Shown in pieces: positions 1 to 27,165 of a stretch of 64,000 bases of DNA (positions are counted from its first letter, which is position 1; the number at the start of each line of letters is the position of its first letter). Source of the DNA: Candidatus Latescibacterota bacterium. GTDB taxonomy: Bacteria; Latescibacterota; UBA2968. The stretch lies in the NCBI GenBank assembly GCA_022823725.1, contig JAJEHL010000039.1:7632-71631 (forward strand). The letters run 5' to 3'. A program made the position numbers and the translations under genes. The notes beneath the pieces were generated by a model. That model was not told where the DNA came from and searched no databases. It saw nothing but the letters and a program-made list of their open reading frames with translations.

Positions 1-61
1 ACTGCTGGGCTAGTCTGATAACCTGCGGTTTTGGCATGTCGTTCTCGACACTTTTGGGTGA

Positions 62-301
62 TTCCTGTCTTTCCTTAGCCATTTCTACCTCCTGTCCAAA
101 TTTGGTCCCGGATCTACTCTATCGGAATATTACTGCCAGACGGGTCTTATCGCTAAAAATAAAAGAATGTCAGCGGCTTATGTCAACGCTCTTTCGGCAG
201 ACACTGCGCTTCGGTTGGTGCGTTACTTTGGAACCACAGATCAATTCTGGCTCAATCTGCATACGCGCTATAATTTAGATTTGGAGAAATCGCCTCGGTG
301 A
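62..301 (+). pseudogene. HigA-like XRE-family antitoxin, C-terminal region (remnant or start-less copy at window edge)
   Basis: Frame-2 translation ...KFGPGSTLSEYY...LSADTALRLVRYFGTTDQFWLNLHTRYNLDLEK ends at TGA 299-301. It matches the conserved HigA C-terminal motif (ALRL..FGTs.eFWLNLQ..YDL). The frame opens only after an in-frame TGA at 59-61 and has no ATG/GTG/TTG before the HTH region, so the gene is truncated, frameshifted or uses an unusual start. Confidence 0.35.
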
Positions 302-623
302 GCGATTGGAGGCAGAGGTGTGGGTTTTAGCGTGATGTGTTGACAGACATCCAATGACAGCAAATTGAGAACAACCTGCTCGAGCGGATGCGGGTGCCCC
401 AGACCTTTGGGAGCGCGTCAGAAAGATCCAGCGAGAGATCAACCCGTAATTCTCGAGCTGCTTACTCATCAGCCTCAGACTGCTCTCGACCACCTCATTC
501 ACATCCATCGCTTGGCGCGGCTCCTCGGACACATCACGGGAGAATACGCGCAAGTGATCGACCGTACCCGCCATCCTATCGGCCCACCCCGAACATCCTC
601 CATCAACTGTCTGTAAATCCCAT

Positions 624-2216
624 TCATACACCCGGACCTTTGACAAACATCCCTGGAGTCGCACCTGTGTGTTCGCCATTTTTGAGGACGTGGATGCCAT
701 TGACGAAGACGTCGCGGATGCCGGTAGAGAGTTGGTGGGAGTCGTCGAATGTCGAGCGGTCGGCGACGGTGTCGGGGGCAAAGACGACGACATCGGCCCA
801 GCAGTTGGGCTGGAGTCGCCCGCGGTCCCACAGTGAGAGGCGATTGGCGACCGAGGAGGTCATTTTGCGGATGGCTTCTTCGAGTGGCATGAGCTTTTCG
901 TCGCGGACATAGCGACCGAGGACGCGGGGATAGGTTCCGTACGACCGGGGGTGGAGCGGTCCCTCAGCAGCCGCCCATTCTGGATCGACGCCGCCCGCAT
1001 CTGTGGAGACTTTGATCCAGGGGAGTTGGAGTTGGAGACGGACGTTGTCTTCGGATATGGTGTGGTAGATGGTGAAGATGCGCTGGTTTTCCGATAGCAG
1101 GAGGTCGATGGTGGCTTCTATCCAGTCCTGGCCGCGCATCTCGGCAATTTCAGAAAGGCGCTTGCCGATGTACTGCTGATTTTCGGATTTTTTAAATCCG
1201 ACCGGAGCGATTCGGTCGGGGCGACGGGGAATCTCGCCCTGGCGGTTTCTGACTTCGGAGACGATTTTCGCGCGGGTGTCGGGATCGCGCAGGTTGGCGA
1301 AGAATTTGCCGTCTGCGGCCACCCAGGTGGGCAGGACAGTAGATAGGCCAGTGCCGCTGGCGGTGTAGGGGTACATATCGGCGGTGATGTCGAGGCCCTC
1401 GGCGCGTACTTGATTTATGCGCGCAATGACCTGGTGCATCTTGGGATAGTTGCGCTCGGGGACGGCTTTGAGGTGGTAGATTTCGACCGGGATGTTGGCG
1501 CGCTGTCCGATTTCGATGGCTTCGTCCAGGGCTTCGAGAAGTTTGTCGGCTTCGGACCGGATGTGGGTGATGTAGATGCCGCCAAATCTCGCCACTGTTT
1601 TGCAGATTTCGACGATTTCGTCTGTAGTGGTATATGTATCCGGTGGATAGATGAGGGCGTAGGAGGGACCGAAGGCGCCATCTTCCATGGATTCGGCCAT
1701 GATGCGGTGCATGGTTTTCATTTCGTCGGGGGTTGGCTCACCCATCCGCATGCCCATTGCGTGCGCGCGCAGGGTGCCCGCACCCAGGAAGGAGCCGACG
1801 TTGGGCGAGACACCGGCTTCGATCATGGCGTCGAGCCAGTTGCCAAAGCGATGCCAGCCCTGCGCCCGTTCCCGCCAGTTTTTGGGGAGAGATCGCGAGA
1901 GGTTATTGGAGCCGCCGACAGGTGCGGGGGTCCACGCTTCGCCCATGATTTCGGTCGTGATGCCCTGTGTGATTTTGGAGAGGCATCGGCCATCGCGCAT
2001 GAGTGGGACGATGGAGTGGCTCTGGATGTCGATGAAGCCGGGACAGACGATGTGACCGGAGGCATTGACGATTTCACCGATGTTATCGCGGGGGATGGTT
2101 CCCGGTGGCTCGATGGCGGATATTTTGCCGTTTTGTAGAGCGACATCGCCGTAGTGCCAGGGGTTGCCAGTGCCGTCAATGATCCTGCCTGAGTGAATAA
2201 GGGTAGTGATTGGCAT
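624..2216 (-). CDS. N-acyl-D-amino-acid deacylase (D-aminoacylase) family amidohydrolase
   Basis: The ORF reads MPITTLIHSGRIIDGTGNPWHYGDVALQNGKISAI...CPGFIDIQSHS..., typical of the D-aminoacylase/metal-dependent amidohydrolase family. The start is set at the internal ATG (2216) preceded by AAGGGA; the track ORF extends to 2366 and overlaps the upstream gene. Confidence 0.75.
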   Translation of the reverse strand: MPITTLIHSGRIIDGTGNPWHYGDVALQNGKISAIEPPGTIPRDNIGEIVNASGHIVCPGFIDIQSHSIVPLMRDGRCLSKITQGITTEIMGEAWTPAPVGGSNNLSRSLPKNWRERAQGWHRFGNWLDAMIEAGVSPNVGSFLGAGTLRAHAMGMRMGEPTPDEMKTMHRIMAESMEDGAFGPSYALIYPPDTYTTTDEIVEICKTVARFGGIYITHIRSEADKLLEALDEAIEIGQRANIPVEIYHLKAVPERNYPKMHQVIARINQVRAEGLDITADMYPYTASGTGLSTVLPTWVAADGKFFANLRDPDTRAKIVSEVRNRQGEIPRRPDRIAPVGFKKSENQQYIGKRLSEIAEMRGQDWIEATIDLLLSENQRIFTIYHTISEDNVRLQLQLPWIKVSTDAGGVDPEWAAAEGPLHPRSYGTYPRVLGRYVRDEKLMPLEEAIRKMTSSVANRLSLWDRGRLQPNCWADVVVFAPDTVADRSTFDDSHQLSTGIRDVFVNGIHVLKNGEHTGATPGMFVKGPGV

Positions 2217-2238
2217 GGGAGTCCCTTTCGTTTTTTTA

Positions 2239-3795
2239 TTAAAAGTCTGCGCCGAAGTTTTGGACAAAGATGAGGAAATCAGAGAAGGTAACGCGCAGGT
2301 CACCGTCGAGGTCAAAGGTGGGGTCAAAGCCAACGTCGCCTGCGGTTTTGCCAAAGCCCGAGACAAAGGCGAGGAAGTCTGAGAAGCCTATTTCACTGTC
2401 GCCATCAAAGTCTGATGTTGCGGGACCAGAAGCGAGTTCAGATACGGAGAGGGTGTAACCGATTGCTGTGCCAGATGTGGAGGTGATGGCGAGGCTTCGG
2501 GCAATATTGCCCGATGTGTGTATGCGTTTTGTCTGTGAGGCTGGGATGGGAATTGGCGCGGCAAAGGGTTGATTCCCTTCGGCAATGAGTGTGACGAGAA
2601 GGTCGTTGTCACCTGTGGATTGAATTGTGAAGGCGAGGTCGGGTGTTTTGCCCAGACCGAGATAGTCTATGCCCCAGCGCGTGGCGCGTCGCGTGAGATT
2701 GTTGGTCGGGACGGTGAGGATTTCGCGCTTTACCGGGGGCAGGTCAATGGCGCGATAGCCGAGGTCTCCCTCACCGTCGAGGTACATGGCTGCGGCCCAT
2801 TGCCCAAAGAGGTGATCAAAGCGTTCGGGCATGTTGAGCGATTGGAGAATATTGTCGATGCTCGCTATGCTGCTGTCTGGATCTGCGACGAGTTTGCGGA
2901 GTGCGCTGTCGCCATAGCGCTGTGCGAAATACGTCATATATAGATATGTCTGGTCAAAATCAAAAAACTGATCTTCCCAATAGGTGAGGTCTGTATTGGC
3001 CGCGAGCGAGAGAAAATTTTCAGTAGCGGCTGCTGTAGTGTCTTTGTATCCACAGGCGAGTTCGGCGTATTCCGAGCACCCTTCGTCGAGCCATTTGGCT
3101 TCGTCGGAATCGGCTTTCCAGTGGATCAGGTGCTGAAATTCGTGGGCGAGTGTGGCGCGTGCGAGGTTGCTGTCAATGTCAAGGGGACGGGCGTCGATAT
3201 AAATGATTTCGCGCGAGACGGGCGGGGCTTCGTTGTCGGTATCGATATAACCGATAAATGTGATGCCCGTGATTGGACTGTCGAGCACGTCGAGTACGAG
3301 GATGAGTATGCGGGGATCGGCATCGACATCTGGGGGATCGCCAAAGAGGTTGGTGACAGTCTCGTAAATGCCGAGGTCGGGATGACGTGCGGTGGATTGA
3401 TCAAACGCGCGTGCCAGGGATTCAATACCCGCTTGTGTTACGCGCGGGGTGTTCCACATGTCATCTTCTACAAAAATATAACAGTGGTCGCCCACATAGC
3501 GACAGGTTGTTGTGGTGTGGTATTTTCCGCCGCCAACGAGTTGGAAACTGTATGCGGGCAGCGTGAGTGTATCGCCAACGCGGAATGGCGTGGAGAAGGG
3601 AATTTTGGTCGCGGGGCGATAGGGTGTGGTTTGGCGTGGAATCAGGTGGGTTCCGCTTTGGGGGATGGGTTGGGCGTGGACGGAAAACCATCCGCAGAGG
3701 AACGCAGATGAGCACAGATAAATGCAAAAAGATCGCAATCCGGCTGTTATATTCGCGAAGAGGAGATCGCATTTGCGAATTGTTGGCGGAGACAT
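2239..3795 (-). CDS. secreted HExxH zinc metallopeptidase with C-terminal dockerin-like (EF-hand) repeat pair
   Basis: There is an N-terminal signal peptide (LRSFCIYLCSSAFLCGWFSVHAQP) and a LAHEFQHLIHW zincin motif. The C-terminus carries two repeats, DFDGDSEIGFSDFLAFVSGFG and DLDGDLRVTFSDFLIFVQNFG, with a DxDGDxxIxFxDF calcium-binding dockerin type-I-like pattern. Confidence 0.6.
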   Translation of the reverse strand: MSPPTIRKCDLLFANITAGLRSFCIYLCSSAFLCGWFSVHAQPIPQSGTHLIPRQTTPYRPATKIPFSTPFRVGDTLTLPAYSFQLVGGGKYHTTTTCRYVGDHCYIFVEDDMWNTPRVTQAGIESLARAFDQSTARHPDLGIYETVTNLFGDPPDVDADPRILILVLDVLDSPITGITFIGYIDTDNEAPPVSREIIYIDARPLDIDSNLARATLAHEFQHLIHWKADSDEAKWLDEGCSEYAELACGYKDTTAAATENFLSLAANTDLTYWEDQFFDFDQTYLYMTYFAQRYGDSALRKLVADPDSSIASIDNILQSLNMPERFDHLFGQWAAAMYLDGEGDLGYRAIDLPPVKREILTVPTNNLTRRATRWGIDYLGLGKTPDLAFTIQSTGDNDLLVTLIAEGNQPFAAPIPIPASQTKRIHTSGNIARSLAITSTSGTAIGYTLSVSELASGPATSDFDGDSEIGFSDFLAFVSGFGKTAGDVGFDPTFDLDGDLRVTFSDFLIFVQNFGADF

Positions 3796-3797
3796 TG

Positions 3798-4421
3798 TTA
3801 AAATCGGACTGAGAGTCGCACCTGTAAGTCCCCAGAGGTATTGGGGGAAACAGTTGCAATGGGACGGGTTTTGGCGGCGATGTTGGCGGCATTTAACGCG
3901 CTGGCAAAGCGATTGAAGATGAGTGCGCCCACAAAGAGAAAGCTGCGTGTGCGTGCCCAGGTGGCTTTGCTTCGCAGTTCTCGGAAGTGTTCACGGGAAG
4001 CCGGTGAGTCCCACTCCCAAAAGTTTTCGGGTGTTTCTGGTAGTGGGTTGCCCGATGAGCCTTCGACATATATCAATCGGGCGTTGTAGTCGTAGATGCT
4101 GTTGTAACTGGATAGGCGGTCGTAATGGGAGTTGGGTTTTTTGACGTTGGTTGCGCCAGCGCGTGCCGCGGCATAAGCGCGGAAGGTATTTTCTCGCGTG
4201 GTGTTGAGTTTTTGAAATGCAAATAATCCCGTCCAGAACATGCCTTCGGTAAATAGGAAAAATTTCGCAGATTTTCGCCCGCCCGCATATCGCTCGCCCA
4301 GGCCGGGTAAGAGGATCGATAAAAAGGCAGCTTTTTTTGGTGATTTCGCTTCTTGTGCAAATGCGGCAGACGGAGCGAGCAAACAGGCACAGACGATCAG
4401 GATTTGGGATGGTGTTTTCAT
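3798..4421 (-). CDS. secreted hypothetical protein (paralog A of tandem pair; conserved LLPGLGE-YAG motif)
   Basis: Signal peptide ILIVCACLLAPSAAFAQ. Shares AAFLSILLPGLGERYAGG / AFFLSLLVPGLGELYAGA, a FRAYA..R.. block and a C-terminal ...R.SV(E)L..RF with the neighbouring gene. Sits in the operon 3 nt from the upstream gene. Confidence 0.5.
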   Translation of the reverse strand: MKTPSQILIVCACLLAPSAAFAQEAKSPKKAAFLSILLPGLGERYAGGRKSAKFFLFTEGMFWTGLFAFQKLNTTRENTFRAYAAARAGATNVKKPNSHYDRLSSYNSIYDYNARLIYVEGSSGNPLPETPENFWEWDSPASREHFRELRSKATWARTRSFLFVGALIFNRFASALNAANIAAKTRPIATVSPNTSGDLQVRLSVRF

Positions 4422-4425
4422 GATG

Positions 4426-5097
4426 CTAAAATCTCGTTTTCAATTCAACCATGGACCGTCCATGACTATCGACAGGCGTGATGTCGATCCACAAGCTCGG
4501 ACCGGTCTTTTTTTGGCGTGTGCGCGTATAGGCCGAGGCGTGTATGGCACTGGCAATGTGGTTGAGTACTGCCAGACCTGTGACAACAGACGCGCGTTTG
4601 AGGTATTTGTTGCTGTCGTTGCGACGGGTTTCATAGTCCAGTCTGCGTGACGATGGCACGTTCTTATTGTCGGTGGAAAAGTCAGCCGTCACATCGTCCC
4701 AGCCATAGACAAATTGATGATATTTGCCAATGAGTTCGTAATACTGTTGCGTGTCGTTGCTTTTGGAAGGCAGGTCGTGGGTTTCGTAATACGGCTCGGG
4801 CTGAGTTTTGTTCCATTCCCGCCAGGCGGTGTACTGTGCTTCCTGCCAATGCCGATCGGCATATGCCCGAAATTCTTCCTTAATGTCATTGCCTTTGCTC
4901 CGCCATGAAACATAAGCGGTCCATGTGAGGGCTTCTGCACCTATAAATCCGACTGCGCGCATTTTGGCTCCGGCATATAATTCACCCAGACCCGGTACAA
5001 GTAGTGAGAGAAAGAAGGCCGTTTTAGGCGATTTTTCCGCAGCGACCTGTCCGCACATGAGCGCGAAAGCAAGCGTGCAGAGTGTGAATGTTCGCAT
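4426..5097 (-). CDS. secreted hypothetical protein (paralog B of tandem pair)
   Basis: Signal peptide TLCTLAFALMCGQVAAE. Same conserved blocks as 3798-4421 and the same C-terminal ...ELKTRF end, giving an aromatic terminus like outer-membrane proteins. Confidence 0.5.
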   Translation of the reverse strand: MRTFTLCTLAFALMCGQVAAEKSPKTAFFLSLLVPGLGELYAGAKMRAVGFIGAEALTWTAYVSWRSKGNDIKEEFRAYADRHWQEAQYTAWREWNKTQPEPYYETHDLPSKSNDTQQYYELIGKYHQFVYGWDDVTADFSTDNKNVPSSRRLDYETRRNDSNKYLKRASVVTGLAVLNHIASAIHASAYTRTRQKKTGPSLWIDITPVDSHGRSMVELKTRF

Positions 5098-5111
5098 GGG
5101 AATTCCTTTGG

Positions 5112-8100
5112 CTAAAAGTTGACTTTCCCAACATCCGTAACAAATCCAAATAATAATGTAAAATATACTTTAAAACCACTTTGTTCAAGTGGATCGCCAG
5201 CCCGTTGCAAAGGCACATGGTCGAAACCGTAGGCCACGTCGAGGCTGGCACGTGTGGGAAAAAGATAAAACGAGGTGGCGTCGTAGCGCAATTGCGTGCC
5301 CAGTTCGCGTTTCCATCCGCGTTTGAGTATCGCGTCGTCGGGTGTGCCATCCCAGGCGCGGGCGATTCCGGCAAAGAACGCGCCGTAGAGTTGATCGGAG
5401 TAGATTGGGCCTGTTTGTCGATCGATGCGCGACCATAAGGGAAAGCGATAAGCCGACCGCAACATCAGGGCGCGGCGACCTTCCAGGCTATAAAACGTAT
5501 ATCCTTTCATACCGGGCAAGCCCCCGAGAAAGAAGTCAAAGGTGTCGTCAACTTCGCTGTCGATCACGCCGCCAAAAAAGCGGAAACTCAGGGCACTGCG
5601 GCCGGGAGCGACCGGGATAAATTCGTTCCAGTCGAGGGAGAGTTGGTTGTAGAAATAGCGGTCGTAGGTTTCGACGATTAGCGAGGAATTTTCCTCAAAG
5701 CCGCTGATGAACCAGTTGAAATAGCGATCGTATCGCAGCGCGAGATGGCGTCCGGATCGGGGATTGATTTCCGAGTCTCGGGATCGACCTATGGCATTGA
5801 GGCGATAGGTGAGGGCGAGGTCAAATCCGTTGAGGGTGGTGGCGGCCACTATGTCGCGATTGAGGCCGTTGAATCGCGCTTGATCCAGGACTGCACCCGT
5901 GCGATTGTACACGAGGCGCGCGTCGATCGTACCGCCGCGTCTCAGGGTGTATTTGCCGCCTATTTCAATGCCCGTGAGCGCAAAGGTGCGGTTGTAGATG
6001 CGAAAGTCTTCGTCACGGCTGATTACATCTTCTTCAACGTGGCGCGATAGACGATAGGCTTCGAGAAAAAAGGTGGGGCGTTTTTTGCGGTATTCGTAAA
6101 GCGCGTACAGGTCCATATCCAGATCGTGGGCAAGCAGACCACTGATAAAAAAGGTTTGTTTTCGCAAGACGTCGTCGGATCCCGCTATGGCGCCGAGTTT
6201 GATTTTGCCGCTGTCAATTGCCAGACGCGGAAGTATGGTGGTGGATGAAAATTCGTTTTTGTATGGGCGGCTCGATATCGCGGGTTTGGGCGGTGTGGGG
6301 ACGAAGGGTTCGACTCGAAAAATGCTGGTCTCTACGGACTCTTTTAATGGCTGAGAGATAACGCGAATTTCGTAGGCGTTTTTGCCGTAGTGGCTATATG
6401 CGATGCGATGGCCATCTGGATGCACCTGGGGTTGAAATGCGCCGCCGTACACGCGGGTGAGGCGGTCTATTGCGCCGTTGGATAGATTGGCGCGATAGAG
6501 GTTGAAGATGCCGTCGTGGTCAGAGGCAAATACGAGGGATGAGCCATCGGGTGTCCAGCACGGATCGCGGTCGGTTTCGCGGGAGGCGATGCGCACTGTG
6601 TAGTCACCGCCTGTTGCGGGAATGGTGGCGATGTCCCGCGAGGTGCCGCTTTGGTAGAGCGAGAATGCGATTTGCGATCCATCGGGAGACCAACGCGGAG
6701 TGGCGACCTGTGAGCCATCGTCGAAAGATGTGAGATATCGAATAGTGTCTGCCGCGATGTCGAGGATACAAAGATTGGTGCTGCCCCCGCCGTTTTTGAT
6801 AAACGCTATTTGCGCTCCGTCTGGCGAATAGGCCGGGTGGATGCCGCGCAAGCCAGTGCTGAGGCGCGTTTCGCCCGGGAAAGTGGCTTGTGCGAGACCA
6901 ATTTTAGTTTTGACATTTTGAAATAGGCTCGATTTGACGGCTTTGGTTTCCATGGCGTAGAGGTCCCATTGCCGCGCACCGTATTTATTGGGCTGGCTGT
7001 GGCGCGCGTAGAGGAGTTGCTCGCCATCAGTTGACCAGTCAAAGGCCGTGACCGCGCTGGGAGCGGCGATTTCTACGCTGCTGTCGGCGAGGGTATAGAC
7101 CATCAAACTCGTGCGCCCATAATCGCTACCTTTATTGGAGAGGTAGGCGAGTTTTGTTCCATCGGGAGACCAGCGAGGGTGTAGATTGAGGTAGCCGTCT
7201 TCGCGGATGAGGTCGCCCTGTGCGGGACTGATTTCGATCTGTGCGATTTGATCCGCATAGCGTTTTTTGAGCGATGCGACCCAGCGCTCGTGCAATTCGC
7301 TTGCAGAGATGCCCAGGGTGGCGCGGATTGCGCCGCCAAAATCCGTGCGCCACCAGACTTTCATTTGCCGATACAATTCGGGGAGTTTGTCGCGCCCAAA
7401 AGTATCGACAATAAAGAGGGAGAGCGAGTAGCCGTGGTCGTACACTTTTTCAAATCCGAGACCTGTTTTGGCGCCAAAGACGGACATTTCGTCGCGGGTG
7501 AGTAAGCTTCCATTGCGCGTGGCCTGGCGCAAAACCATATCGCGGTGTGAGTCCCAGCGGTCGTGTTGTGCGCCCGGTGCCATGTATTGCGCCGTGCCTT
7601 CGGCAAACCAGGGCGGGATGATGGTGGCGGGAATGGCATAAGCGGCAAGGACATTGGGATAGCCAGCGAGGATGTCGTCGCGTTTGCCTTCGCCCTGATA
7701 TTGCAGGTAGTTGAGGAAGATGGCGGGGATGCGCCGCGAGGATTTTCGAGCGATTTGGAGCGAGATGATGTGCGTCAATTCGTGCGTTATCACGTTTGGA
7801 AGCCAATCTGTACTGCCGCGCAGTGCAAAGTCGAGGTTGGAGACCCAGATTTCGATGGTGTTGTGGTAATAATACGCTGCGCCATTGGCATAGTCTTCGG
7901 TGTCTTTGAGAATGATGCGGACTTTGCTATCGGGTTCAAAATTGTAAAAGGACGCGATCGGGCTGTACGCGTCTTCGGCGATTTGGGCAGCACGCGGAGC
8001 CAGCTTTTCCAGTCCCTGATGGTAATAGACTTTGAAGTGCTCGGTTTCAATGACGCGCCAGTTCAGTTCGGGGTGATTGGCGTCAAATTGCGCGAGGGCC

Positions 8101-8153
8101 TGTGTACTCAGGGTCAGGAGGATGAGGATCGTTTGTGTGAATTTGTAAGACAT
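5112..8153 (-). CDS. outer-membrane Omp85/BamA-type beta-barrel protein with N-terminal HExxH peptidase-like domain and TolB-like PD40 beta-propeller (no recognisable POTRA)
   Basis: Signal peptide (ILILLTLSTQALAQ), followed by the motif VITHELTHIIS. At least five PD40-type repeats are present (PRWSPDGTKLAYLS, PAYSPDGAQIAFIK, PRWSPDGSQIAFSL, PCWTPDGSSLVFAS, PQVHPDGHRIAYSH). The C-terminal roughly 350 aa carry Omp85 motifs (FLGGLPGMKGYTFYSLEGRRALMLRSAYRFPL) and the protein ends ...GKVNF with a terminal Phe. Confidence 0.65.
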   Translation of the reverse strand: MSYKFTQTILILLTLSTQALAQFDANHPELNWRVIETEHFKVYYHQGLEKLAPRAAQIAEDAYSPIASFYNFEPDSKVRIILKDTEDYANGAAYYYHNTIEIWVSNLDFALRGSTDWLPNVITHELTHIISLQIARKSSRRIPAIFLNYLQYQGEGKRDDILAGYPNVLAAYAIPATIIPPWFAEGTAQYMAPGAQHDRWDSHRDMVLRQATRNGSLLTRDEMSVFGAKTGLGFEKVYDHGYSLSLFIVDTFGRDKLPELYRQMKVWWRTDFGGAIRATLGISASELHERWVASLKKRYADQIAQIEISPAQGDLIREDGYLNLHPRWSPDGTKLAYLSNKGSDYGRTSLMVYTLADSSVEIAAPSAVTAFDWSTDGEQLLYARHSQPNKYGARQWDLYAMETKAVKSSLFQNVKTKIGLAQATFPGETRLSTGLRGIHPAYSPDGAQIAFIKNGGGSTNLCILDIAADTIRYLTSFDDGSQVATPRWSPDGSQIAFSLYQSGTSRDIATIPATGGDYTVRIASRETDRDPCWTPDGSSLVFASDHDGIFNLYRANLSNGAIDRLTRVYGGAFQPQVHPDGHRIAYSHYGKNAYEIRVISQPLKESVETSIFRVEPFVPTPPKPAISSRPYKNEFSSTTILPRLAIDSGKIKLGAIAGSDDVLRKQTFFISGLLAHDLDMDLYALYEYRKKRPTFFLEAYRLSRHVEEDVISRDEDFRIYNRTFALTGIEIGGKYTLRRGGTIDARLVYNRTGAVLDQARFNGLNRDIVAATTLNGFDLALTYRLNAIGRSRDSEINPRSGRHLALRYDRYFNWFISGFEENSSLIVETYDRYFYNQLSLDWNEFIPVAPGRSALSFRFFGGVIDSEVDDTFDFFLGGLPGMKGYTFYSLEGRRALMLRSAYRFPLWSRIDRQTGPIYSDQLYGAFFAGIARAWDGTPDDAILKRGWKRELGTQLRYDATSFYLFPTRASLDVAYGFDHVPLQRAGDPLEQSGFKVYFTLLFGFVTDVGKVNF

Positions 8154-8165
8154 AGTGTTAATGGT

Positions 8166-11156
8166 TTACTTAATTACTGCGGCTTTGATAAATCGCACCT
8201 CTGTGCGCGTGCTATTGCTGGCTTGCAGGCGACAGATATAGAGGCCGCTGGCATAATCGGATATATCCCAGGCGATTTCGTTGTCAGTATTGGGCATGGG
8301 ATTGTTGTGAGTGAGGTCGGCGACTCTTTCACCGAGGGGATTGTAAATGGTCATAGTGATTTCGGCGGGTTCTAACAAAAAAAAGCGAATGCGCGCCCTG
8401 TCGCCATTGCGGATCGGGTTGGGGTAGAGATATGCTCGTGCCGCAGGTAAAAGCGAGGTTTCTGTTGGGGTTGCGATTTCGCCCGGCTGTTGGAGCAATT
8501 TGCCCGTGTTGCCCGGTCCGCCGCCGAGTTGTCCCCAGATAATTTTGTTACCGGTATAAGATGGGTCAATTGTTTCCAGGTGGAAGAGTTGCGCGCTGCC
8601 GTCGGCGGTATAGATAATGAGTTCCAGGGTGCCGTCGTTGTCAAGGTCGTCGATAAGTGGTGATGAGAGAATGGGGCCGGGTACTAACAGAGGGAAGCCC
8701 GGTAGGGAATGTCCTTCGGCGGTCAGACCGTAGAGGAAGCCACCGCGTGTACCCGCGAAAATATCGGGGGTTGTGTCGTTATTGATGTCGGCGAGAATAG
8801 GCGGTGCTTCAATGGGGCCGGCGTCGTCTTTTATCGGGAGGGCGAGTGCGCCTTCGGTTTGCAAGATGGCGTTGAAGCGATAAAGCCAGAGTTTGCCGTT
8901 GCCGCCAAAGAGGACTTCGACAAATCCGTCGCGATCGACGTCGGCTACAACAGGGGGTGAATGCGCGCCGCCGGGTACGGGATCGCTTGTGAAGGCGAGG
9001 CCGTTGGCGTCGAGGATGGAGAGGATACCGTCTGTTGAGATGACTGCAATGTCGTCATTGCCATCGCGGTCGAGGTCGCCTATTGCCGGGCCGCCGATGA
9101 TGGGAGACGCGAATGTGGCGAGTGGATTGGATTGGTTGGTTCTGTGAATGAGGTGGAGCTGAGCACTGCTGGTAATGGCGATGAGTTCATTGTCCGAGTC
9201 GCCGTCGATATTTCCCACGGCGAGCGATTGGATGGCATCGCTCAGGGCGATGCTGCCCGTGGTTTCAGATAGAAGATTACCCCATTCGATTTTTCCATCG
9301 CTCCTTCCCCAGATATCGACATATGTTGTGGGGAATTTTGCAATGACGGGTGTTGAAGAGAAAAATGGATTGATATCGATGGTTTCGTGGACTGTACCAC
9401 TGGGACGCCAGTGCGTTCGGGTTGTTTCTCCGCGATGATAGATGAATCCGGCTATTTCCGGGTCGCCAATTGCAGGGGTTGTCGCAAATGACTCGTCCAG
9501 GCTGTGCTGTGTGCCCGCGATTTTCCACGCGCCAGCACTGTGAAGGATTTCTTTGCTTCCATCTCCGTCGAGGTCGATGACGCGGGGCGACTCCCGTGTG
9601 GGATTCAAGTTTGTAATCGGCCAGTTATCTATCCGATTGGCAAAACGGATAGCAACTGACATTACTTCGCCGTGTGGGCTGAGTACTTCGATAGTTATGC
9701 CGCTTTCATAGCCTGAGTTGCTGCGGGTGTTCGGCGAGGTGTTGGGATCAAATACGGCGTTGTTGCCCACGTAAAAGGCGTCTTCTGGCGCGCCTTCGAT
9801 ACTGCTTAATGAGATGATACCAGCTTGAATGATGCGGCTGGCCGATACATTGCCGATGTCTTGAAGGCCATCGGCTTCCTCGAGGGCAATGCCGCGGCGA
9901 TATTGGGCGGGTGCAATTTTGTAATCGGGATGGCTATTGATGTGTTTTTCTGCATTGCTGGCCCGAATAATCGCATCGTCAATGTGGTAGATGAGAATGC
10001 CCGAGCCGGGTATGAATGCGTCGTAGTCATCTGTGGAAAGCCAGACATTATGAGGGGTAGAAAATTCGATTTGCGGGATGCGATTTTCAATATTGAGGCG
10101 CGAGTAGCGATTTTCAATTAAAAAATATTCTGTGGCGCTGATAGGTACGCGAATAGCCTGCGGAAGATCGGACGCGCTACCGGATGCAGCGATTTCTACG
10201 GTGTCGTTGTGGGTGATCACGAGTGGTTCGAGCCAGCCGAGTTGCATGCGGCACCAGGCGATCATGCGACTGGGCAAGAATCCAATCAAATTTGTGCTGG
10301 CGGGGTCGTTTCTGAGGGGTTGGAGTCCCAGGCGCGCGGCGTCAATTTGATTGTTGGCACCCGTGTCCATCAAACTCCAGTCGCCAATTGCAGGCAGATC
10401 GTTTTCAAAGTCCGAAAGACCGGGCAAGCCGAGTTGCGAGGCAAAAAATCGAGCGATCGTACCGTTGAGACCACCCTGACCATTTGTGCTGATGGCTTCG
10501 GGCAATAGCATGCCCGATGTGACCTGAAAAGCACCGTTGTTGACGGAAATCGCGCCGTCGGCGAGTTCGATGAGGTCGCGTTCAAAAATAAAGGCCGAGG
10601 GTATATCATTGAGTTTTTGACCTGCTTCTCCGCCGAGTCCCGCATGAAATACTGCAAAGGCGCGGTATTTTGAGAAATCTATATTTGCGCCATCTGTGTT
10701 ATCCGCAGCGCGAATACCATCCCGAAAAAGCCGCGTGACGCGCTCATTTATTTCGCGCCTTGTGCGCCCATTGCCGTATTCGATCAAGGGGGTGTCGAGG
10801 ACGTAACTCGCGGTGGAGTCTTGTGGATAGACATCGTATTCGATGGTTAGTTGACCTCGGGATATGTCGCGGTAATAATTGGACAGTGCCTGCAGGTGGG
10901 CTTCAAAATAGGCGCGGTCATGGGGGGGGGCATCAAAGGGGTAGATGCGATCGGGACTTTCGACTGTACTGAGATTGAACGTGCCGTTTCCACTGGTGGT
11001 TTCGTTGTCGGGATCTTCGGGGGGAAAAGAGACGCGCACGGCTAAGACGCGATAGGTTGGGTCAGCTATAATAGGCTGTACAAAAAGGGCTATAAGACAC
11101 AGGAGGATTCCGCATCTGGACAGAAGGGTCATAGTTAAGCGTGTATTCGGTTTCAT
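8166..11156 (-). CDS. large secreted M6 (immune-inhibitor-A)-like domain protein with FG-GAP repeats and T9SS C-terminal sorting domain
   Basis: Signal peptide is present. The segment ...TIARFFASQLGLPGLSDFENDLPAIGDWSLMDTG resembles the M6 HEYGHNLGLPDEY...WSLM region, but with the His/Glu positions substituted. There are at least six FG-GAP-like Ca-binding repeats (IDLDGDGSKEIL, GNIDGDSDNELIAI, GDLDRDGNDDIAVI, ADVDRDGFVEVLF, ADINNDTTPDIFAG, DDLDNDGTLELIIY). The C-terminus LYPNPIRNGDRARIRFFL...TMTIYNPLGERVADL...GLYICRLQA...VRFIKAAVIK fits the T9SS CTD (Por secretion tail). Confidence 0.7.
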   Translation of the reverse strand: MKPNTRLTMTLLSRCGILLCLIALFVQPIIADPTYRVLAVRVSFPPEDPDNETTSGNGTFNLSTVESPDRIYPFDAPPHDRAYFEAHLQALSNYYRDISRGQLTIEYDVYPQDSTASYVLDTPLIEYGNGRTRREINERVTRLFRDGIRAADNTDGANIDFSKYRAFAVFHAGLGGEAGQKLNDIPSAFIFERDLIELADGAISVNNGAFQVTSGMLLPEAISTNGQGGLNGTIARFFASQLGLPGLSDFENDLPAIGDWSLMDTGANNQIDAARLGLQPLRNDPASTNLIGFLPSRMIAWCRMQLGWLEPLVITHNDTVEIAASGSASDLPQAIRVPISATEYFLIENRYSRLNIENRIPQIEFSTPHNVWLSTDDYDAFIPGSGILIYHIDDAIIRASNAEKHINSHPDYKIAPAQYRRGIALEEADGLQDIGNVSASRIIQAGIISLSSIEGAPEDAFYVGNNAVFDPNTSPNTRSNSGYESGITIEVLSPHGEVMSVAIRFANRIDNWPITNLNPTRESPRVIDLDGDGSKEILHSAGAWKIAGTQHSLDESFATTPAIGDPEIAGFIYHRGETTRTHWRPSGTVHETIDINPFFSSTPVIAKFPTTYVDIWGRSDGKIEWGNLLSETTGSIALSDAIQSLAVGNIDGDSDNELIAITSSAQLHLIHRTNQSNPLATFASPIIGGPAIGDLDRDGNDDIAVISTDGILSILDANGLAFTSDPVPGGAHSPPVVADVDRDGFVEVLFGGNGKLWLYRFNAILQTEGALALPIKDDAGPIEAPPILADINNDTTPDIFAGTRGGFLYGLTAEGHSLPGFPLLVPGPILSSPLIDDLDNDGTLELIIYTADGSAQLFHLETIDPSYTGNKIIWGQLGGGPGNTGKLLQQPGEIATPTETSLLPAARAYLYPNPIRNGDRARIRFFLLEPAEITMTIYNPLGERVADLTHNNPMPNTDNEIAWDISDYASGLYICRLQASNSTRTEVRFIKAAVIK

Positions 11157-11165
11157 AATGCGAGA

Positions 11166-12512
11166 TCAGTGAGAATAGCTGATGCGATAGATCAGGCCGG
11201 CCTGGTCGTCCGATACGAGCAGGGAACCGTCGGGCATGACGAGTACATCGACTGGCCTGCCCCAGTTCGATTCGCCCTGCAGCCAGCCTTTTGCGAATGG
11301 CTCATAGCTGACTGCCTCGTTGCCATTCAGGCGCACCAGGGTGACGCGGTAGCCGATCTTGCTGCTGCGATTCCAGGATCCGTGTTCGGCGATAAAGATC
11401 TGATTGCGGTACTCCTCTGGAAACATGTCGCCAGTGTAGAAGCGCATTCCCAGAGCCGCTACGTGTGGGCCGAGTTCCTGGACCGGCGCGACGAACTCGC
11501 CGCAGCTACGCTGATCGCCGAATACAGGATCGGCGATGTTGGTGCCGTGGCAGTAGGGATAGCCGAAGTGCTGTCCATTGACGGTTATTCTGTTCAGTTC
11601 GTCCGGTGGCACATCGTCGCCCATTCTGTCTCTTCCGTTGTCCGTGAACCACAGTTCGCCCGTTTCCGGATGCCAATCGAAACCGACGGTGTTGCGAATG
11701 CCTCGCGCTATGATGCCGAAGTTGCCATTGGTGTCCAATCTTCCGATTGAGGCGTACGGATCGCCGCGATTGCAGATGTTGCACGGCGCGCCGACGGGTA
11801 CGTACAGCAAACCGTCGGGGCCAAAGCGGATGAACTTCCAGCCGTGCGATCGATTCGTGGGAAAAGTGTCGTTGACGATTTCCGGCTGTGGCGGGTTGTC
11901 GAGTTGTGCTTCGATGTTGCGATAGCGCAGGATGCGGTTGATTTCGGCTACGTACAGGTCGCCGTTCTTGAAGGCGACGCCGTTGGGGTTGTTCATGCCG
12001 CGGGCGAGGATGATGACTCGTTCTGCTTTGTGGTCGCCATCTTCGTCGCGTAGTGCGTACACGCGGCCACTGGGGCGAGTGCCGACAAAGAGGGTGCCGT
12101 GTGGACTGAGGCTCATTGAGCGAGCACCCGTTATCCCTTCGGCGTATATGTGAATGTGGAATCCTTCAGGTAGTTCAATTCGCGTCAGGCGTGGATCGCT
12201 GGGTGGTTGTGGTGCCGTTGATGATGCCGCAAAGCTATTGACAAATAGCAGAAAATCGTCAAATGCAATCTCGCCATTCCCATCCAGGTCGTATTTCGCA
12301 TCGTACCGCTCTTGGCCGGCTTGAGATCCGAATGCGGTGACAAATAGCAAAAAGTCGGGAAAATCGACAACACCATTGCCATTAAAGTCCGAAGAAGGGG
12401 GACTGCTATTTTGAGAAAAAAGAGGCGAAAGCAAGAGTGTGAAGTTCAGCAAACTGGCGGTGCCGAGCGCGAGAAGGCGAGGTCTGGCATTGTATCTCAA
12501 GAGATTTAGCAT
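11166..12512 (-). CDS. PQQ-dependent soluble aldose/sorbosone dehydrogenase (GSDH family) with N-terminal dockerin-like repeat pair
   Basis: A signal peptide is followed by DFNGNGVVDFPDFLLFVTAFG and DLDGNGEIAFDDFLLFVNSFAA (dockerin/EF-hand pattern). The body matches GSDH/YliI-type beta-propeller dehydrogenases (...RNTVGFDWHPETGELWFTDNGRDRMGDDVPPDELNRITVNGQHFGYPYCHG...). Confidence 0.7.
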   Translation of the reverse strand: MLNLLRYNARPRLLALGTASLLNFTLLLSPLFSQNSSPPSSDFNGNGVVDFPDFLLFVTAFGSQAGQERYDAKYDLDGNGEIAFDDFLLFVNSFAASSTAPQPPSDPRLTRIELPEGFHIHIYAEGITGARSMSLSPHGTLFVGTRPSGRVYALRDEDGDHKAERVIILARGMNNPNGVAFKNGDLYVAEINRILRYRNIEAQLDNPPQPEIVNDTFPTNRSHGWKFIRFGPDGLLYVPVGAPCNICNRGDPYASIGRLDTNGNFGIIARGIRNTVGFDWHPETGELWFTDNGRDRMGDDVPPDELNRITVNGQHFGYPYCHGTNIADPVFGDQRSCGEFVAPVQELGPHVAALGMRFYTGDMFPEEYRNQIFIAEHGSWNRSSKIGYRVTLVRLNGNEAVSYEPFAKGWLQGESNWGRPVDVLVMPDGSLLVSDDQAGLIYRISYSH

Positions 12513-12569
12513 TGTATTTCAACTGATGTCTTCGTCGCAAGGAGAATCAGTTTGCTGAACTTGCGAGGA

Positions 12570-13634
12570 TTAAAATATAAATCCACCCGTAAAGCGGAAT
12601 GTATTGCTGGCAGGCGTATCTTCCGTCGGCACAAAATACGAGATATCGAAATTTGCCCAGTTGTATTTTAAACCCAGCCCAAAGGTGGGAAAGTTGCGTT
12701 TGCCATCCTTGTCGTAGGAATAGCCACTGCGCAGGGCAAAAGACGAATCTTCAGATAGCTGGTACATCCATTCGGCACCTACGCGGTAATCTATATCGTC
12801 AAATTCCGTAAAACCGTTTCCGCCCGGATTGGGCTTCCAGCCAAAGGTGTCGTCGTGCCAGCCAGAAATAAAGGAAAAGAAATTATCAGAGGCGAGAGGT
12901 TTGTAAATATCTGTGGTGAGCATCAGGGAAGACGAGTTGTTTTTCATCACTTTGTATGCGATGCCAAAAACGAAATTTTGCGGCAGCGGATCTGCCTGGT
13001 CGGCATCGATAAAGGTCATGTTTGGGCCAACATTGCGCAATACGCTACCGAAGCTAAGCCGATCTGTGGCGGCCCACATGAGACCTATGTCTCCGGCAAA
13101 AGAAGTCGCAGTGCCTTTGCCTTGCTCAATGCCCGCACCTGCGTCGGAGAGGTTTTCATGGATAAACTTAACCGTGATGCCCAGTGCCAGATTTTTGAAG
13201 AGATGCGTGCCATAAGATACACCCAGGGCCATGCCGTAGCTTTTAAATGTACCTAAAAGATTTCCCTCTTCATCGGTGCGTTGTTGTTCGCCCAAAGAAC
13301 TATAAATGAGGCTATATCCCAAATTGCCAATGCCACTAAAGGGATGTGTATAAGCACCGAATGACGAAAAGATGTCGCCGGCCAGTCGGGGAACAGGTTT
13401 GTACAGAGTGGTGCTGAGACTGTGAATTTGTAATGAAGCCAGTGCGGCGGGGTTGTAGTACGTGGCATTTGCGTCATTGGCAATAGCGACATAAGCATTG
13501 CCCATGCCCGCTGCACGGGCCGATGGCGCGAACAACAGAAAATTGGCTGCGGCATGGCTTTCGGGCGTTGCATAAACTGGCGTGCTGAGCAGGCCAATGC
13601 CAAGCGCAAATAGGGTGAGAAGACGGTATTTCAT
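12570..13634 (-). CDS. FadL-like outer-membrane beta-barrel, PorV/PorQ-family candidate (T9SS-associated)
   Basis: Signal peptide LFALGIGLLSTPVYA. The N-terminal hatch motif SARAAGMGNAYVAIANDANATYYNPAALA is typical of PorV/PorQ/FadL-like proteins. It is beta-strand-rich throughout, ends ...FTGGFIF with a terminal Phe, and is the first gene of the operon containing a T9SS cargo. Confidence 0.5.
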   Translation of the reverse strand: MKYRLLTLFALGIGLLSTPVYATPESHAAANFLLFAPSARAAGMGNAYVAIANDANATYYNPAALASLQIHSLSTTLYKPVPRLAGDIFSSFGAYTHPFSGIGNLGYSLIYSSLGEQQRTDEEGNLLGTFKSYGMALGVSYGTHLFKNLALGITVKFIHENLSDAGAGIEQGKGTATSFAGDIGLMWAATDRLSFGSVLRNVGPNMTFIDADQADPLPQNFVFGIAYKVMKNNSSSLMLTTDIYKPLASDNFFSFISGWHDDTFGWKPNPGGNGFTEFDDIDYRVGAEWMYQLSEDSSFALRSGYSYDKDGKRNFPTFGLGLKYNWANFDISYFVPTEDTPASNTFRFTGGFIF

Positions 13635-13929
13635 TGGGGCTCTCCTTTATGGAATTGGCCGGGAAGCTTGCAAAACATAAAAAAACCCGGCCGTGAGCGC
13701 GTGTGAACGCGCCACCAACCGGGGGGCATTCTAACATCGCGCGCTAAAGCAAGCACATCTCGAATATCGGACAAGATTTTACTGATGCAAAAAAACAGCG
13801 CTTTAGCGGTGATGCGATAGATAAATTTCCTGATTAATGGTGAGATAAGATCAAAAAAACCGCTTGTTTGAGACTCGCGTGTTGCCTATTTTCAGATCAC
13901 GAATTTTTGATTGATGAAAGGGAAGAACC

Positions 13930-14193
13930 GTGATTGACCGAGACTTACTCGATATTTTGGCCTGTCCAGAGAACAAAATGCCCGTAAAATTGGCCGATCA
14001 ACCGCTGATAGACGCCATCAACAGTGCGATTGCAAAAGGCGAGGTTAAAAACCGAGGCGGACAAAAAATTGAACAGCCAATTGATGGAGGCCTGGTGCGG
14101 GAAGATTACATCTGTTTATATCCCATTCAGGACGCGATTCCCATTATGTTGATCGACGAATCCATCCCAATAGAAAAATTCGCGGCTCAATAG
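13930..14193 (+). CDS. Trm112-family small protein (UPF0434/DUF343)
   Basis: MIDRDLLDILACPENKMPVKL... carries the LLDILACP...C-less Trm112-like motif. It is small (87 aa) and stand-alone. Confidence 0.6.
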   Translation: MIDRDLLDILACPENKMPVKLADQPLIDAINSAIAKGEVKNRGGQKIEQPIDGGLVREDYICLYPIQDAIPIMLIDESIPIEKFAAQ

Positions 14194-14346
14194 CTTTTTC
14201 CTCATTTTTAAAGTATTTTAAAACTTCAGCAAATCCTTCCCATGTGTCAAGCCTTTTTTGTTCGGTTTAGACGTTTCCACATGCAGCGGGTTCCGTATTT
14301 TTTAAAATTTATATAATATATAATATTTGGTCACACGTGGGTCGTT

Positions 14347-17415: not shown

Positions 17416-17500
17416 GTCTGGTATTTTGGCTTGACAGAGGGGCAATAGGCTTTTATGTTGAGCATTGATTTGTGCAATTTTTTTGTAACTGGAGGCGTTT

Positions 17501-18172: not shown

Positions 18173-18198
18173 ATGACAAACCGATTGTGAGGTGTTTT

Positions 18199-18969: not shown

Positions 18970-18995
18970 CTTCCTTCTTGACACTGTTTTAGAAT

Positions 18996-19025
18996 TTGTT
19001 ATCTTTGGCGCGTCTGATATATAAC
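18996..19025 (+). promoter_or_regulatory. candidate sigma70-type promoter for trp leader/operon (-35 TTGTTA, -10 TATAAC, 18-nt spacer)
   Basis: Hexamers read from the sequence about 8-25 nt upstream of the leader RBS AAGGAA (19034-19039). The match is weak and has not been checked against any model. Confidence 0.25.
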
Positions 19026-19048
19026 TCTCGTTTAAGGAATTTGGTGTG

Positions 19049-19153: not shown

Positions 19154-19178
19154 GTGTGATGTAAGTGAATGAAAGTAC

Positions 19179-19215: not shown

Positions 19216-19262
19216 TGCCTTTCATCTGCGTCCATCTGCGGATTTGACTTAAGGATTTTTTA

Positions 19263-21298: not shown

Positions 21299-21314
21299 TT
21301 TGTGAGCTGAGGAG

Positions 21315-27152: not shown

Positions 27153-27165
27153 GGGGATATACAAT

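Follow-up and report, generated by a model that had tools for sequence, protein, structure and literature searches.

Two adjacent minus-strand genes of the 64-kb window (the whole stretch of DNA that was analysed) encode full-length paralogs, designated A and B. The pair appears to be ancient and non-redundant, its members being Sec-exported, mainly α-helical envelope proteins of the DUF5683 superfamily. We tentatively propose that the two act jointly, probably joined in a hetero-oligomer, and that they serve an outer-membrane T9SS-attachment/Omp85 module, encoded by the surrounding gene cluster, as accessory subunits.

Paralogy, conserved blocks and family membership

Gene B (223 aa, positions 4426..5097, minus strand) is always the first of the pair, and gene A (207 aa, 3798..4421, minus strand) is always the second; both DUF5683-like genes were delimited by open reading frame and family alignment, and they are separated by 4 nt. 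The first-pass annotation had described two adjacent reading frames of these lengths with a common signal peptide, an LLPGLGE-YAG block, a FRAYA block and a common C-terminus. All of these are present in A and B, and both proteins finish in ..RF behind an alternating hydrophobic strand. Pairwise alignment, for which low-complexity similarity had been named as the opposite outcome, demonstrates real paralogy. By BLASTP, 74 N-terminal residues are 43% identical (E 2e-14), and the A and B family profiles compared by hhalign align over 178 columns, approximately the full length of the mature protein, with a probability of 99.7% (E 3.7e-27). The length and score of the profile alignment exclude low-complexity similarity.

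The signal peptide of B comprises aa 1–20 (5038..5097), with predicted cleavage between VAA and EK, as read from the sequence; that of A comprises aa 1–22 (4356..4421), with predicted cleavage between AFA and QE, as read from the sequence and the A alignment. In the family alignments, the N-terminus is hydrophobic in orthologues of both proteins, and a variable linker comes after it. A lipoprotein reading of B was rejected: the Cys near the end of its signal peptide is not conserved, and there is no lipobox.

A few residues past the predicted AxA-type cleavage site begins the motif AFFLSLLVPGLGELYAGA in B (aa 27–44, 4966..5019) and AAFLSILLPGLGERYAGG in A (aa 31–48, 4278..4331; A alignment, AlphaFold2 model and profile comparison). 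It is modelled in B as a helix-turn-helix (helices 24–33 and 37–42). According to the alignment, A27, S31, P35, G36, G38 and E39 (B numbering) are invariant in both families. Among the window's reading frames of 50 aa or more, no other has the pattern PG.G[EQ].[YW]. The FRAYA block (B aa 76–80, 4858..4872; A aa 80–84, 4170..4184, from the A family alignment) lies in the first long helix of B, where F76, R77 and A80 are invariant. The last long helix (150–195 in B) has a conserved hydrophobic end, which contains GLAVLNHIASAIHAS in B (aa 169–189, 4531..4593) and GALIFNRFASALNAA in A (aa 160–180, 3882..3944; alignments and AlphaFold2); G174, N179, S183 and A187 of the B helix are invariant across both families. 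This helix is an additional common block absent from the first-pass annotation (FNRFASALNAA in A, LNHIASAIHAS in B). Each family also has its own invariant cap, QQYYE.IGKY.QF..GWDD in B and SIY..N ... WEWD in A.

The proposed search against DUF families leads to an existing superfamily, at sub-threshold level. Pfam DUF5683 (PF18935) scores 20.9 bits for A (E 3.8e-4) and 21.8 bits for B (E 2.1e-4), both below the cut-off of 26.7. At E ≤ 0.01 the model is found in 32/46 B orthologues (best 1.5e-6) and 25/37 A orthologues (best 1.5e-4), and a precomputed PF18935 mark is present on many B orthologues. In hhalign, the motif block matches canonical DUF5683, represented by a narrow alignment of Flavobacteriia only, at 88.7% (B) and 94.7% (A) over 23–31 columns, the motif being the only aligning block. 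In some relatives the Pfam HMM alignment extends up to model positions 96–116 of 151. A and B thus appear to be distant, sub-threshold DUF5683 relatives, and the family itself is not new. At 50% identity, 3,743 clusters match the A/B profile, and canonical relatives number at least 8,000. Two distant relatives carry an N-terminal CsgG/LpoB/DUF3280-like domain, a fold of the periplasmic, outer-membrane-lipoprotein type.

The age of the pair was evaluated in 80 species-level genomes, those of Latescibacterota together with loci that carry the labels Gemmatimonadota, Zixibacteria, KSB1, Calditrichota or Ignavibacteriales. Across these phyla the B-then-A order is conserved, A following B in 73/77 cases. 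A is nearer to a foreign A than to the B of its own genome in 99.8% of comparisons, and B is nearer to a foreign B in 100%. Judged by these distances, the duplication is ancient. A recent tandem duplication is ruled out because each paralog is nearer its counterpart in other phyla. Of the duplication proposed earlier, the paralogy therefore stands, and the local event is replaced by an ancient one with fixed B-then-A order. The same proximity to foreign counterparts suggests that A and B are non-redundant. Exceptions are two loci in which A is missing (L013 and L014, the latter with B alone) and one (L001) in which the pair is found without the cluster.

The conserved gene cluster

The conserved order is [PorU]–PorV–inactive M6-like T9SS cargo–[peptidase/PD40/Omp85 barrel]–B–A–[HExxH peptidase]. 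Among evaluable loci, the M6-like gene is found in 60/61, PorV in 59/61, the Omp85-like gene in 61/66 and the downstream HExxH neighbour in 58/70. A PorU-like gene, encoding a Peptidase_C25 protein with a sorting domain, directly precedes PorV in 28/55. Both flanks named in the first-pass annotation (Omp85-like and HExxH/dockerin-like) are borne out. Of the suggestion that A and B may be substrates or partners of the adjacent Omp85 barrel, what is supported is that the neighbour is Omp85-like; the steadiest gene neighbours of A and B are PorV and the M6-like cargo, often with PorU, rather than the Omp85 gene.

In the window all cluster genes are on the minus strand. The first is PorV, the T9SS outer-membrane shuttle barrel (12570..13634; PF19572, 64.8 bits against a cut-off of 27). 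It is followed by a GSDH-like propeller with an N-terminal dockerin/EF-hand module (11166..12512), which is present only in close relatives. The M6-like gene (8166..11156) encodes an inactivated metalloprotease with FG-GAP and a T9SS type A sorting domain (NF052323, 362.9 bits; TIGR04183, 35.8 bits), that is, a T9SS cargo; HExxH occurs in only 3/65 orthologues.

The gene directly upstream of B (5112..8153, 1013 aa) combines an MA-clan HExxH peptidase, a PD40/TolB-like propeller and a C-terminal Omp85-like barrel (C-domain 5115..6314; the 'WD40-Omp85' type), and its HExxH is intact in 71/71 orthologues. The Omp85 likeness is seen at family level: the window copy has no Pfam match, PF01103 is found in 7/22 orthologous C-domains (best 2.7e-13), and a 91%-identical orthologue has a weak precomputed match. 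The family profile gives six matches in the PDB, all TamA/POTRA-type barrels (E 0.07–0.4). Two of these alignments fall over GGLPGMKGY, and we take GG..(R/K)G(Y/F) to be the Omp85 loop-6 motif. Downstream of A lies an MXAN_6640-like HExxH putative metalloprotease with a dockerin-like C-terminus (2239..3795, 518 aa), with HExxH in 65/65 orthologues.

Gene junctions of the cluster in the window measure 2–14 nt, which suggests co-translation. Promoter and terminator counts equalled the shuffled background and were uninformative for operon boundaries. Genes beyond the cluster vary from locus to locus. The Omp85 gene is not in the cluster at three loci labelled Zixibacteria or Ignavibacteriales (L075, L077 and L082). 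A protein of ~1,100 aa downstream of A in Zixibacteria-labelled loci was tested as a displaced Omp85-like gene and is not Omp85-like. Since the Omp85 gene, A or the whole cluster is missing at some loci, the partnerships are not obligatory everywhere. Nevertheless, synteny across phyla strongly suggests that A and B are functionally linked to the cluster genes.

Predicted architecture and possible roles

In the AlphaFold2 models (pLDDT 85.4 for B and 82.3 for A), a helical hairpin topped by a small cap is predicted with confidence, and a C-terminal β-hairpin with low confidence. The latter covers aa 201–223 in B (4429..4497; strands 202–207 and 216–221, pLDDT 42–55), ending in ..ELKTRF, and aa 187–207 in A (3801..3863; strands 188–193 and 199–204), ending in ..VRLSVRF. 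The low confidence suggests that a partner is missing from the monomer models. With a β hydrophobic moment of 0.83 in B and 1.1 in A, the last strand is strongly amphipathic. The outer-membrane-protein-like aromatic C-terminus proposed earlier is retained: F, Y or W ends 76/81 A orthologues (94%) and 63/86 B orthologues (73%), and a further 15 B orthologues finish in ..PFD or ..PLD. Among the PorV barrels of these clusters, 57/61 have a terminal F. An amphipathic last strand that finishes in an aromatic residue matches the outer-membrane β-signal type. Neither protein is a complete β-barrel, each model having one hairpin and being helical elsewhere.

The helices after the signal peptide are moderately hydrophobic: KD(19) maxima lie at 1.0–1.45, and Hessa sums, crudely estimated, at +5 to +8 kcal/mol. 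These figures come from simple scales rather than a trained topology predictor, and the Hessa values are approximate. The helices are uniformly hydrophobic and not amphipathic (muH 0.07–0.24). On these scales they do not look like classical stop-transfer segments, and neither does the equivalent last helix of canonical DUF5683 with its two Asp. Sequence and fold searches against the PDB found no solved precedent for A or B. Both proteins have a base of hydrophobic helices, and association with a membrane is probable. Of the earlier label 'small secreted', the signal peptides thus remain, and simple secretion does not.

For our tentative reading of A and B as accessory subunits of the outer membrane, we infer localisation, association and docking as follows. 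After removal of the signal peptide, A and B would reach the periplasm. The LLPGLGE-YAG helix-turn-helix could pack on the hydrophobic halves of two ~40-residue helices, giving a compact, small-residue-rich hydrophobic base with a conserved polar stripe (Glu39, Glu55, Asn179 and Ser183, B numbering). The amphipathic C-terminal hairpin, with its outer-membrane-type aromatic end, would anchor this base to the outer membrane on its periplasmic side. Such docking might occur via β-augmentation onto the Omp85-like or PorV barrel, or via pairing with the hairpins of the other paralog. The polar stalk and invariant cap would reach about 60 Å into the periplasm, where the caps could bind periplasmic propeller/peptidase domains, or else cargo or the anchor substrate. 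Several observations count against this model: a two-stranded hairpin alone cannot make a barrel, the sequence and fold searches gave no solved precedent, cluster partners are missing at some loci, and uniformly hydrophobic helices also fit true membrane embedding, the inner membrane included.

A more specific form of the proposal is doubtful. According to it, A and B would form an outer-membrane-anchored hetero-oligomer with hairpins integrated in the WD40-Omp85 or PorV barrel and caps positioning the PorU-like sortase, the M6-like pseudo-protease or the anchor substrate. Extended to Bacteroidota, this reading would make the DUF5683 protein there a missing envelope factor of like kind.

Alternatively, A and B could reside in the inner membrane (N-out/C-out), the motif forming a periplasmic re-entrant helix, the helix halves crossing the membrane, the cap being cytoplasmic and the hairpin periplasmic. 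Such proteins could connect the outer-membrane module with the inner membrane or, via the buried Glu/Asn stripe, form a small membrane enzyme or ion site. Hydrophobic stretches of 19–22 residues with a low helical moment, many small residues and conserved Glu/Asn within them fit this placement, as does the weak Pfam likeness of the same segments to DUF6677 and ABA_GPCR (another membrane family). It is unlikely, however, since the hydrophobicity is under the usual transmembrane level on both scales given above and the last helix of canonical DUF5683 has two Asp. The cleavable signal peptide, the CsgG/LpoB-like N-terminal fusions in two relatives, and the amphipathic strand with its conserved aromatic end of outer-membrane-protein type also argue against it. 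Basic residues beside the cap side of both helices would suit this topology, but they stand beside the other side too. Distinctly unlikely is a soluble periplasmic holdase of the Skp/prefoldin kind, in which A and B hairpins assemble a small β-barrel body and helical arms hold clients of the Omp85-like protein or T9SS cargo. The signal peptide, the ~60 Å helical hairpin, terminal β elements poorly predicted in the monomer, and the location directly downstream of an Omp85-type gene, which recalls bamA-skp, are all compatible with it. Prefoldin has two paralogous subunit types, and the A/B pair resembles it in this respect. Nevertheless, A and B have no OmpH/Skp Pfam match, neither family profile matches Skp or prefoldin among PDB sequences, the tip is an invariant globular cap instead of free basic arms, and the hydrophobic base is unlike that of soluble chaperones.

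It is very improbable that A and B build an outer-membrane channel of their own, in which many C-terminal hairpins would form a composite β-barrel above a periplasmic tunnel of helices (TolC/CsgG style) for export or anchoring of the cluster products. This reading is derived purely from architecture: an amphipathic hairpin with a terminal aromatic, long helices right beneath it, an obligate pair of fixed order and the CsgG-like domain of two relatives. Fold searches gave no match to TolC, CsgG, secretins or MspA, and the modelled strands are short (about 6 residues). A general housekeeping envelope role of DUF5683 is given equally little probability; here the neighbours would be unrelated to it, and the synteny would reflect an inherited stable operon with no shared complex. 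The parAB-dapB-lepB setting of canonical DUF5683 in two Flavobacteriia genomes is consistent with such a role, as are the locus that keeps the pair without the cluster and the one that keeps B alone. Against it, order and adjacency hold over several phyla while flanking genes turn over, and the short junctions suggest co-translation. Furthermore, both paralogs have diverged far from canonical DUF5683 and possess their own invariant caps, which suggests specialisation.

Comparison with known systems

DUF5683 is a very large family without literature, structure or assigned role: a search for DUF5683/PF18935 returned nothing dedicated, only an unrelated nematode paper, and there is no solved structure. 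What is new here is that one branch of it appears as an ancient fixed-order pair in a porU-porV-centred cluster with a peptidase-bearing Omp85 barrel in several poorly studied phyla. This offers a testable hypothesis for DUF5683: its members could be accessory subunits at the outer membrane that are linked to the attachment of T9SS cargo. Should the link be real, Omp85 and T9SS, both machines of broad interest, would gain parts; should it be false, the pair stays an ordinary conserved hypothetical.

Canonical Bacteroidota DUF5683 proteins (Flavobacterium, Winogradskyella; P0394 and P0423) share with A and B the signal peptide followed by an (A)AF(Y/L)S.(I/L)LPGLG(Q/E).Y motif, a helical middle, a conserved Asn-containing last helix and a C-terminal hairpin with an aromatic end. 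In the canonical set the terminal F is invariant. The A/B motif differs in having Glu for Gln, and the A/B cap is larger with other invariant residues. In the two Flavobacteriia genomes checked (L087 and L088), canonical DUF5683 is a single gene in the order parA-parB-DUF5683-dapB-lepB, unlike the B-A pair in its PorV/M6-like/Omp85 cluster. Because these canonical genes have no T9SS or Omp85 neighbours, the core function of DUF5683 may be more general than T9SS.

In Bacteroidota, tandem OmpH-like genes lie beside bamA. Skp/OmpH resembles A and B in being exported, in its long helical hairpin and terminal β elements, and in the location of its gene directly downstream of an Omp85-family gene. 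Unlike Skp/OmpH, with which there is no sequence or fold match, A and B add a conserved hydrophobic base, a globular invariant cap and the terminal aromatic. PMC12611786 describes skpA at the F. johnsoniae bamA locus as a T9SS component. The new subunits of the Bacteroidota BAM reported there were considered as kin of A and B and are unrelated, and DUF5683 goes unmentioned in the supplements of that paper.

Heinz and Lithgow (2014, PMC4104836) described the 'WD40-Omp85' subfamily, in which an Omp85-type barrel follows a TolB-like propeller in place of POTRA domains. The upstream neighbour of B has this propeller and barrel architecture and differs in its additional N-terminal MA-clan HExxH peptidase; no helical partner proteins are described in PMC4104836. 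The 'Metallo-Omp85' class of the same authors was rejected for this neighbour, being defined by another Pfam domain (PF00149).

Among described T9SS components A and B have no counterpart: no NCBIfam or Pfam T9SS model matches either protein, and no PDB sequence or fold match was found, the PDB searched including T9SS and Bacteroidota BAM complexes. Literature searches on T9SS in Latescibacteria and on PorV in Gemmatimonadetes returned nothing useful. One of the closest described systems is the PorU-PorV-PorQ-PorZ attachment complex of P. gingivalis (PMC12365241, PMC8754138), with which the cluster shares PorV and, at about half of the evaluable loci, the PorU-like protein; no PorQ or PorZ homologue was identified. 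As in PorU and PorZ, the large propeller-bearing protein of the cluster keeps a T9SS sorting domain. Unlike P. gingivalis, the hosts here belong to non-Bacteroidota phyla of the FCB group, and the cluster provides a conserved gene set for studying T9SS attachment outside Bacteroidota.

Paralogy and age of the pair

Gene B (4426..5097, minus strand, 223-aa ORF) and gene A (3798..4421, minus strand, 207-aa ORF) are separated by 4 nt. By BLASTP their products align over no more than the ~75 N-terminal residues (43% identity, E 2e-14). Profile-profile comparison of the family alignments made from database homologues (A1 for the A family, 37 sequences; A2 for the B family, 46 sequences) covers 178 columns, nearly the full length of the mature protein, with 99.7% probability and E 3.7e-27. 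The paralogy asserted in the first-pass annotation is thus confirmed far beyond chance, and every sequence block listed there was found in both proteins. Fourteen columns are invariant in both families (B numbering: A27, S31, P35, G36, G38, E39, F51, E55, A80, R159, G174, N179, S183, A187), and the last helix carries an additional common block (FNRFASALNAA in A, LNHIASAIHAS in B). Among the other ORFs of the window, none has the motif and none is recognised by the A or the B family HMM.

In 99.8% of comparisons A is nearer to A proteins from other genomes, other phyla included, than to B from the same genome, and B is nearer to foreign B than to its own-genome A in 100%. The duplication is therefore older than the divergence of these lineages, which replaces the earlier view of a local event; the two copies have persisted since then without a change of order.

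Relation to DUF5683

The family is not new, since HMM search detects distant relatives in Pfam DUF5683 (20.9 bits for A and 21.8 bits for B, below the cut-off of 26.7). The match is weak in most orthologues and at threshold in some; NCBIfam models match neither protein. Canonical DUF5683 proteins were retrieved with a probe sequence used only as bait, which returned real PF18935-annotated proteins; those that are named belong to Flavobacterium and Winogradskyella. Like A and B, they possess a signal peptide, the motif (here AAFYSAILPGLGQAYNKKYWK), an Asn-containing last helix (here LNIVDANVDAHL) and a C-terminal hairpin, the final F being invariant in the canonical set. Against a narrow canonical alignment, the motif alone of the A and B profiles was aligned (23–31 columns, 89–95% probability).

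In two Flavobacteriia genomes (loci L087 and L088) the canonical gene is single and lies within parA-parB-DUF5683-dapB-lepB. It overlaps the end of parB and is followed by dapB (6102–7561 in L087, 6109–7606 in L088), and co-transcription with the partition genes is suggested. The signal peptidase I encoded after this region is fused to DUF5684. Given the motif-only alignment and the different gene context, A and B are not clean members of the DUF5683 superfamily but two branches that have diverged within it.

Gene cluster and its conservation

The cluster genes in the window share one strand and are packed, with junctions of 2–14 nt. PorV (12570..13634, minus strand; PF19572, 64.8 bits), a GSDH-like/dockerin protein (11166..12512, minus strand), an M6-like inactivated metalloprotease with FG-GAP and a T9SS sorting domain (8166..11156, minus strand) and a 1013-aa MA-peptidase/PD40 protein (5112..8153, minus strand) precede B and A, and a 518-aa HExxH/dockerin-like protein (2239..3795, minus strand) follows. 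Over its last 400 residues the 1013-aa protein is Omp85-like when judged at the level of the family: PF01103 matches 7 of 22 orthologous C-domains (best 2.7e-13), and all six PDB matches of the family profile, although weak (E 0.07–0.4), are TamA/POTRA-type Omp85 barrel proteins, the two printed alignments sitting on the GG..(K/R)GY motif.

HExxH is intact in 71/71 Omp85-fused MA-domain proteins and 65/65 of the 518-aa proteins, and occurs in only 3/65 M6-like proteins. Judged by these residues, the cluster, in the window and in its orthologues in L002–L086, brings together one pseudo-protease and two apparently active zinc peptidases. The 518-aa protein has a dockerin/EF-hand-like calcium-binding module at its C-terminal end and the GSDH-like propeller protein has one at its N-terminal end; the two proteins match each other with about 50 bits. 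The cluster yielded no cohesin-like partner. An Amidohydro_3-type (D-aminoacylase-like) gene (624..2366, minus strand), a neighbour shared with no loci but those of very close relatives (L002, L003), has a probable ATG about 22 nt past the 518-aa stop and therefore may be co-transcribed. The GC skew of the window (1..64000) is strongly positive (0.1–0.3) almost throughout, irrespective of coding strand, and falls to about zero at 40–44 kb.

Scanning a single genome for each GTDB species gave 80 loci. The window is 99% identical to a Candidatus Latescibacterota MAG; other loci are labelled Gemmatimonadota, Handelsmanbacteria, Zixibacteria, KSB1, Calditrichota, Ignavibacteriales, Cytophagia and Planctomycetota, some of which bin labels may be wrong. 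Neighbours of B were counted where the flank sufficed to judge them: A lies directly downstream in 73/77 loci, and the M6-like cargo (60/61), PorV (59/61), the Omp85-like gene (61/66) and the 518-aa HExxH gene (58/70) accompany it. Genes beyond the cluster vary from locus to locus. The linkage to T9SS attachment genes is very stable and usually extends to the Omp85-type barrel.

A PorU-like protein (Peptidase_C25 and T9SS sorting domain) is encoded directly upstream of PorV in 28 of 55 evaluable loci (L036, L039–L044, L046, L050–L054, L057, L059, L061, L062, L065, L067–L069, L071, L072, L075–L077, L082, L085) and is absent from this position in the window's own clade; the ancestral cluster therefore probably began with porU-porV. 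In L075, L077 and L082 (labelled Zixibacteria or Ignavibacteriales) PorU-PorV-M6-like-B-A is intact, and the Omp85-like gene is absent within 10 kb. There (about 3300–6200 and 11400–16000), PorV is extended at its N-terminus by ~600 aa (with LysM and Reg_prop in L082), and B-A is followed by an NHL propeller protein and another of ~1,100 aa without a Pfam match. No A follows B in L013 and L014, and in L001 (10001–11345) the pair is on its own, with no cluster around it, beside integrase and DNA methylase genes; these three loci belong to a sub-clade, 77–81% identical to the window, with an eroded cluster. A second, weakly PorV-like ORF (24–48 bits, 308–330 aa) is found on the opposite strand about 6–7 kb downstream of the pair in many loci (L040–L043, L046, L051, L053, L054, L058–L062, L064, L065, L069, L071, L072, L074; about 16–18 kb, minus strand). 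The cluster also occurs on a 4.2-kb contig binned as Gemmatimonas phototrophica (L048) and on a contig from Caldithrix sp. (L084); should these bins be correct, the pair might exist in cultivable relatives and so be open to experiment.

Architecture and possible function

Both proteins have an AxA-type signal peptide, read from sequence, followed in the orthologues by a linker of variable length. AlphaFold2 models built from the family alignments are confident (pLDDT 85.4, pTM 0.70 for B; pLDDT 82.3, pTM 0.64 for A). In each, two antiparallel ~40-residue helices enclose a small helical cap, and the LLPGLGE-YAG block forms a short helix-turn-helix; the C-terminal beta-hairpin is of low confidence (pLDDT about 42–67). 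The caps are extremely conserved yet differ between the paralogs (T..LP...QQYYE.IGKY.QF..GW.D in B, SIY..N...WEWD..SR..F..LRS in A). The outer-membrane-protein-like C-terminus noticed earlier holds: the last strand is strongly amphipathic as a beta-strand, and an aromatic residue closes the sequence in 76/81 A and 63/86 B orthologues, with ..PFD or ..PLD at the end of another 15 B. In the PorV barrels of these clusters the last residue is F in 57/61. A and B are shown to be non-redundant paralogs with a confident helical architecture and an outer-membrane-protein-like terminal strand. In two distant B-like relatives, a CsgG/LpoB/DUF3280-like domain precedes the DUF5683-like part (P0178, aa 57–133; P0218, aa 64–176); this fold is periplasmic, of the outer-membrane-lipoprotein type.

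In the favoured but tentative reading, A and B would be exported to the periplasm and held on the periplasmic side of the outer membrane by the hydrophobic base and terminal hairpin, docked to a barrel or to each other, while the stalk and invariant cap could extend toward the propeller/peptidase domains or cargo. Outer-membrane anchoring taken separately is plausible, short of probable. The hydrophobic halves of the long helices share one end with the motif and the hairpin. These halves contain many small residues, have almost no helical amphipathicity (muH 0.07–0.24) and are only moderately hydrophobic (KD(19) <=1.45; a crude sum of +5 to +8 kcal/mol on a Hessa scale). Placement of both proteins in the inner membrane, N-out/C-out, is unlikely, and a channel self-assembled as a barrel from the terminal hairpins is highly improbable.

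The stable linkage makes a functional connection to the cluster likely, and a housekeeping role unrelated to the neighbours has a very small probability, comparable to that of the channel. The earlier proposal of a partnership with adjacent genes stands as probable, without its focus on the Omp85 barrel: PorV and the M6-like gene stay beside the pair more steadily than the barrel gene, so that specific, direct binding to this barrel is doubtful, and the linkage indicates the PorU/PorV attachment genes at least as much. A Skp/prefoldin-like periplasmic holdase, marginally less probable than the inner-membrane placement, would agree with the gene position and gross shape, which recall Skp beside bamA, but every similarity test with Skp failed.

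No homology of A or B to any described T9SS or BAM subunit was found. The adjacent 1013-aa protein matches the architecture of the 'WD40-Omp85' class (Heinz and Lithgow, PMC4104836), from which it differs by an added peptidase domain. The closest known family to the pair is DUF5683, itself uncharacterised; the pair departs from it in its sub-threshold similarity, its different invariant caps, its duplication into two lineages and its T9SS/Omp85 gene context.
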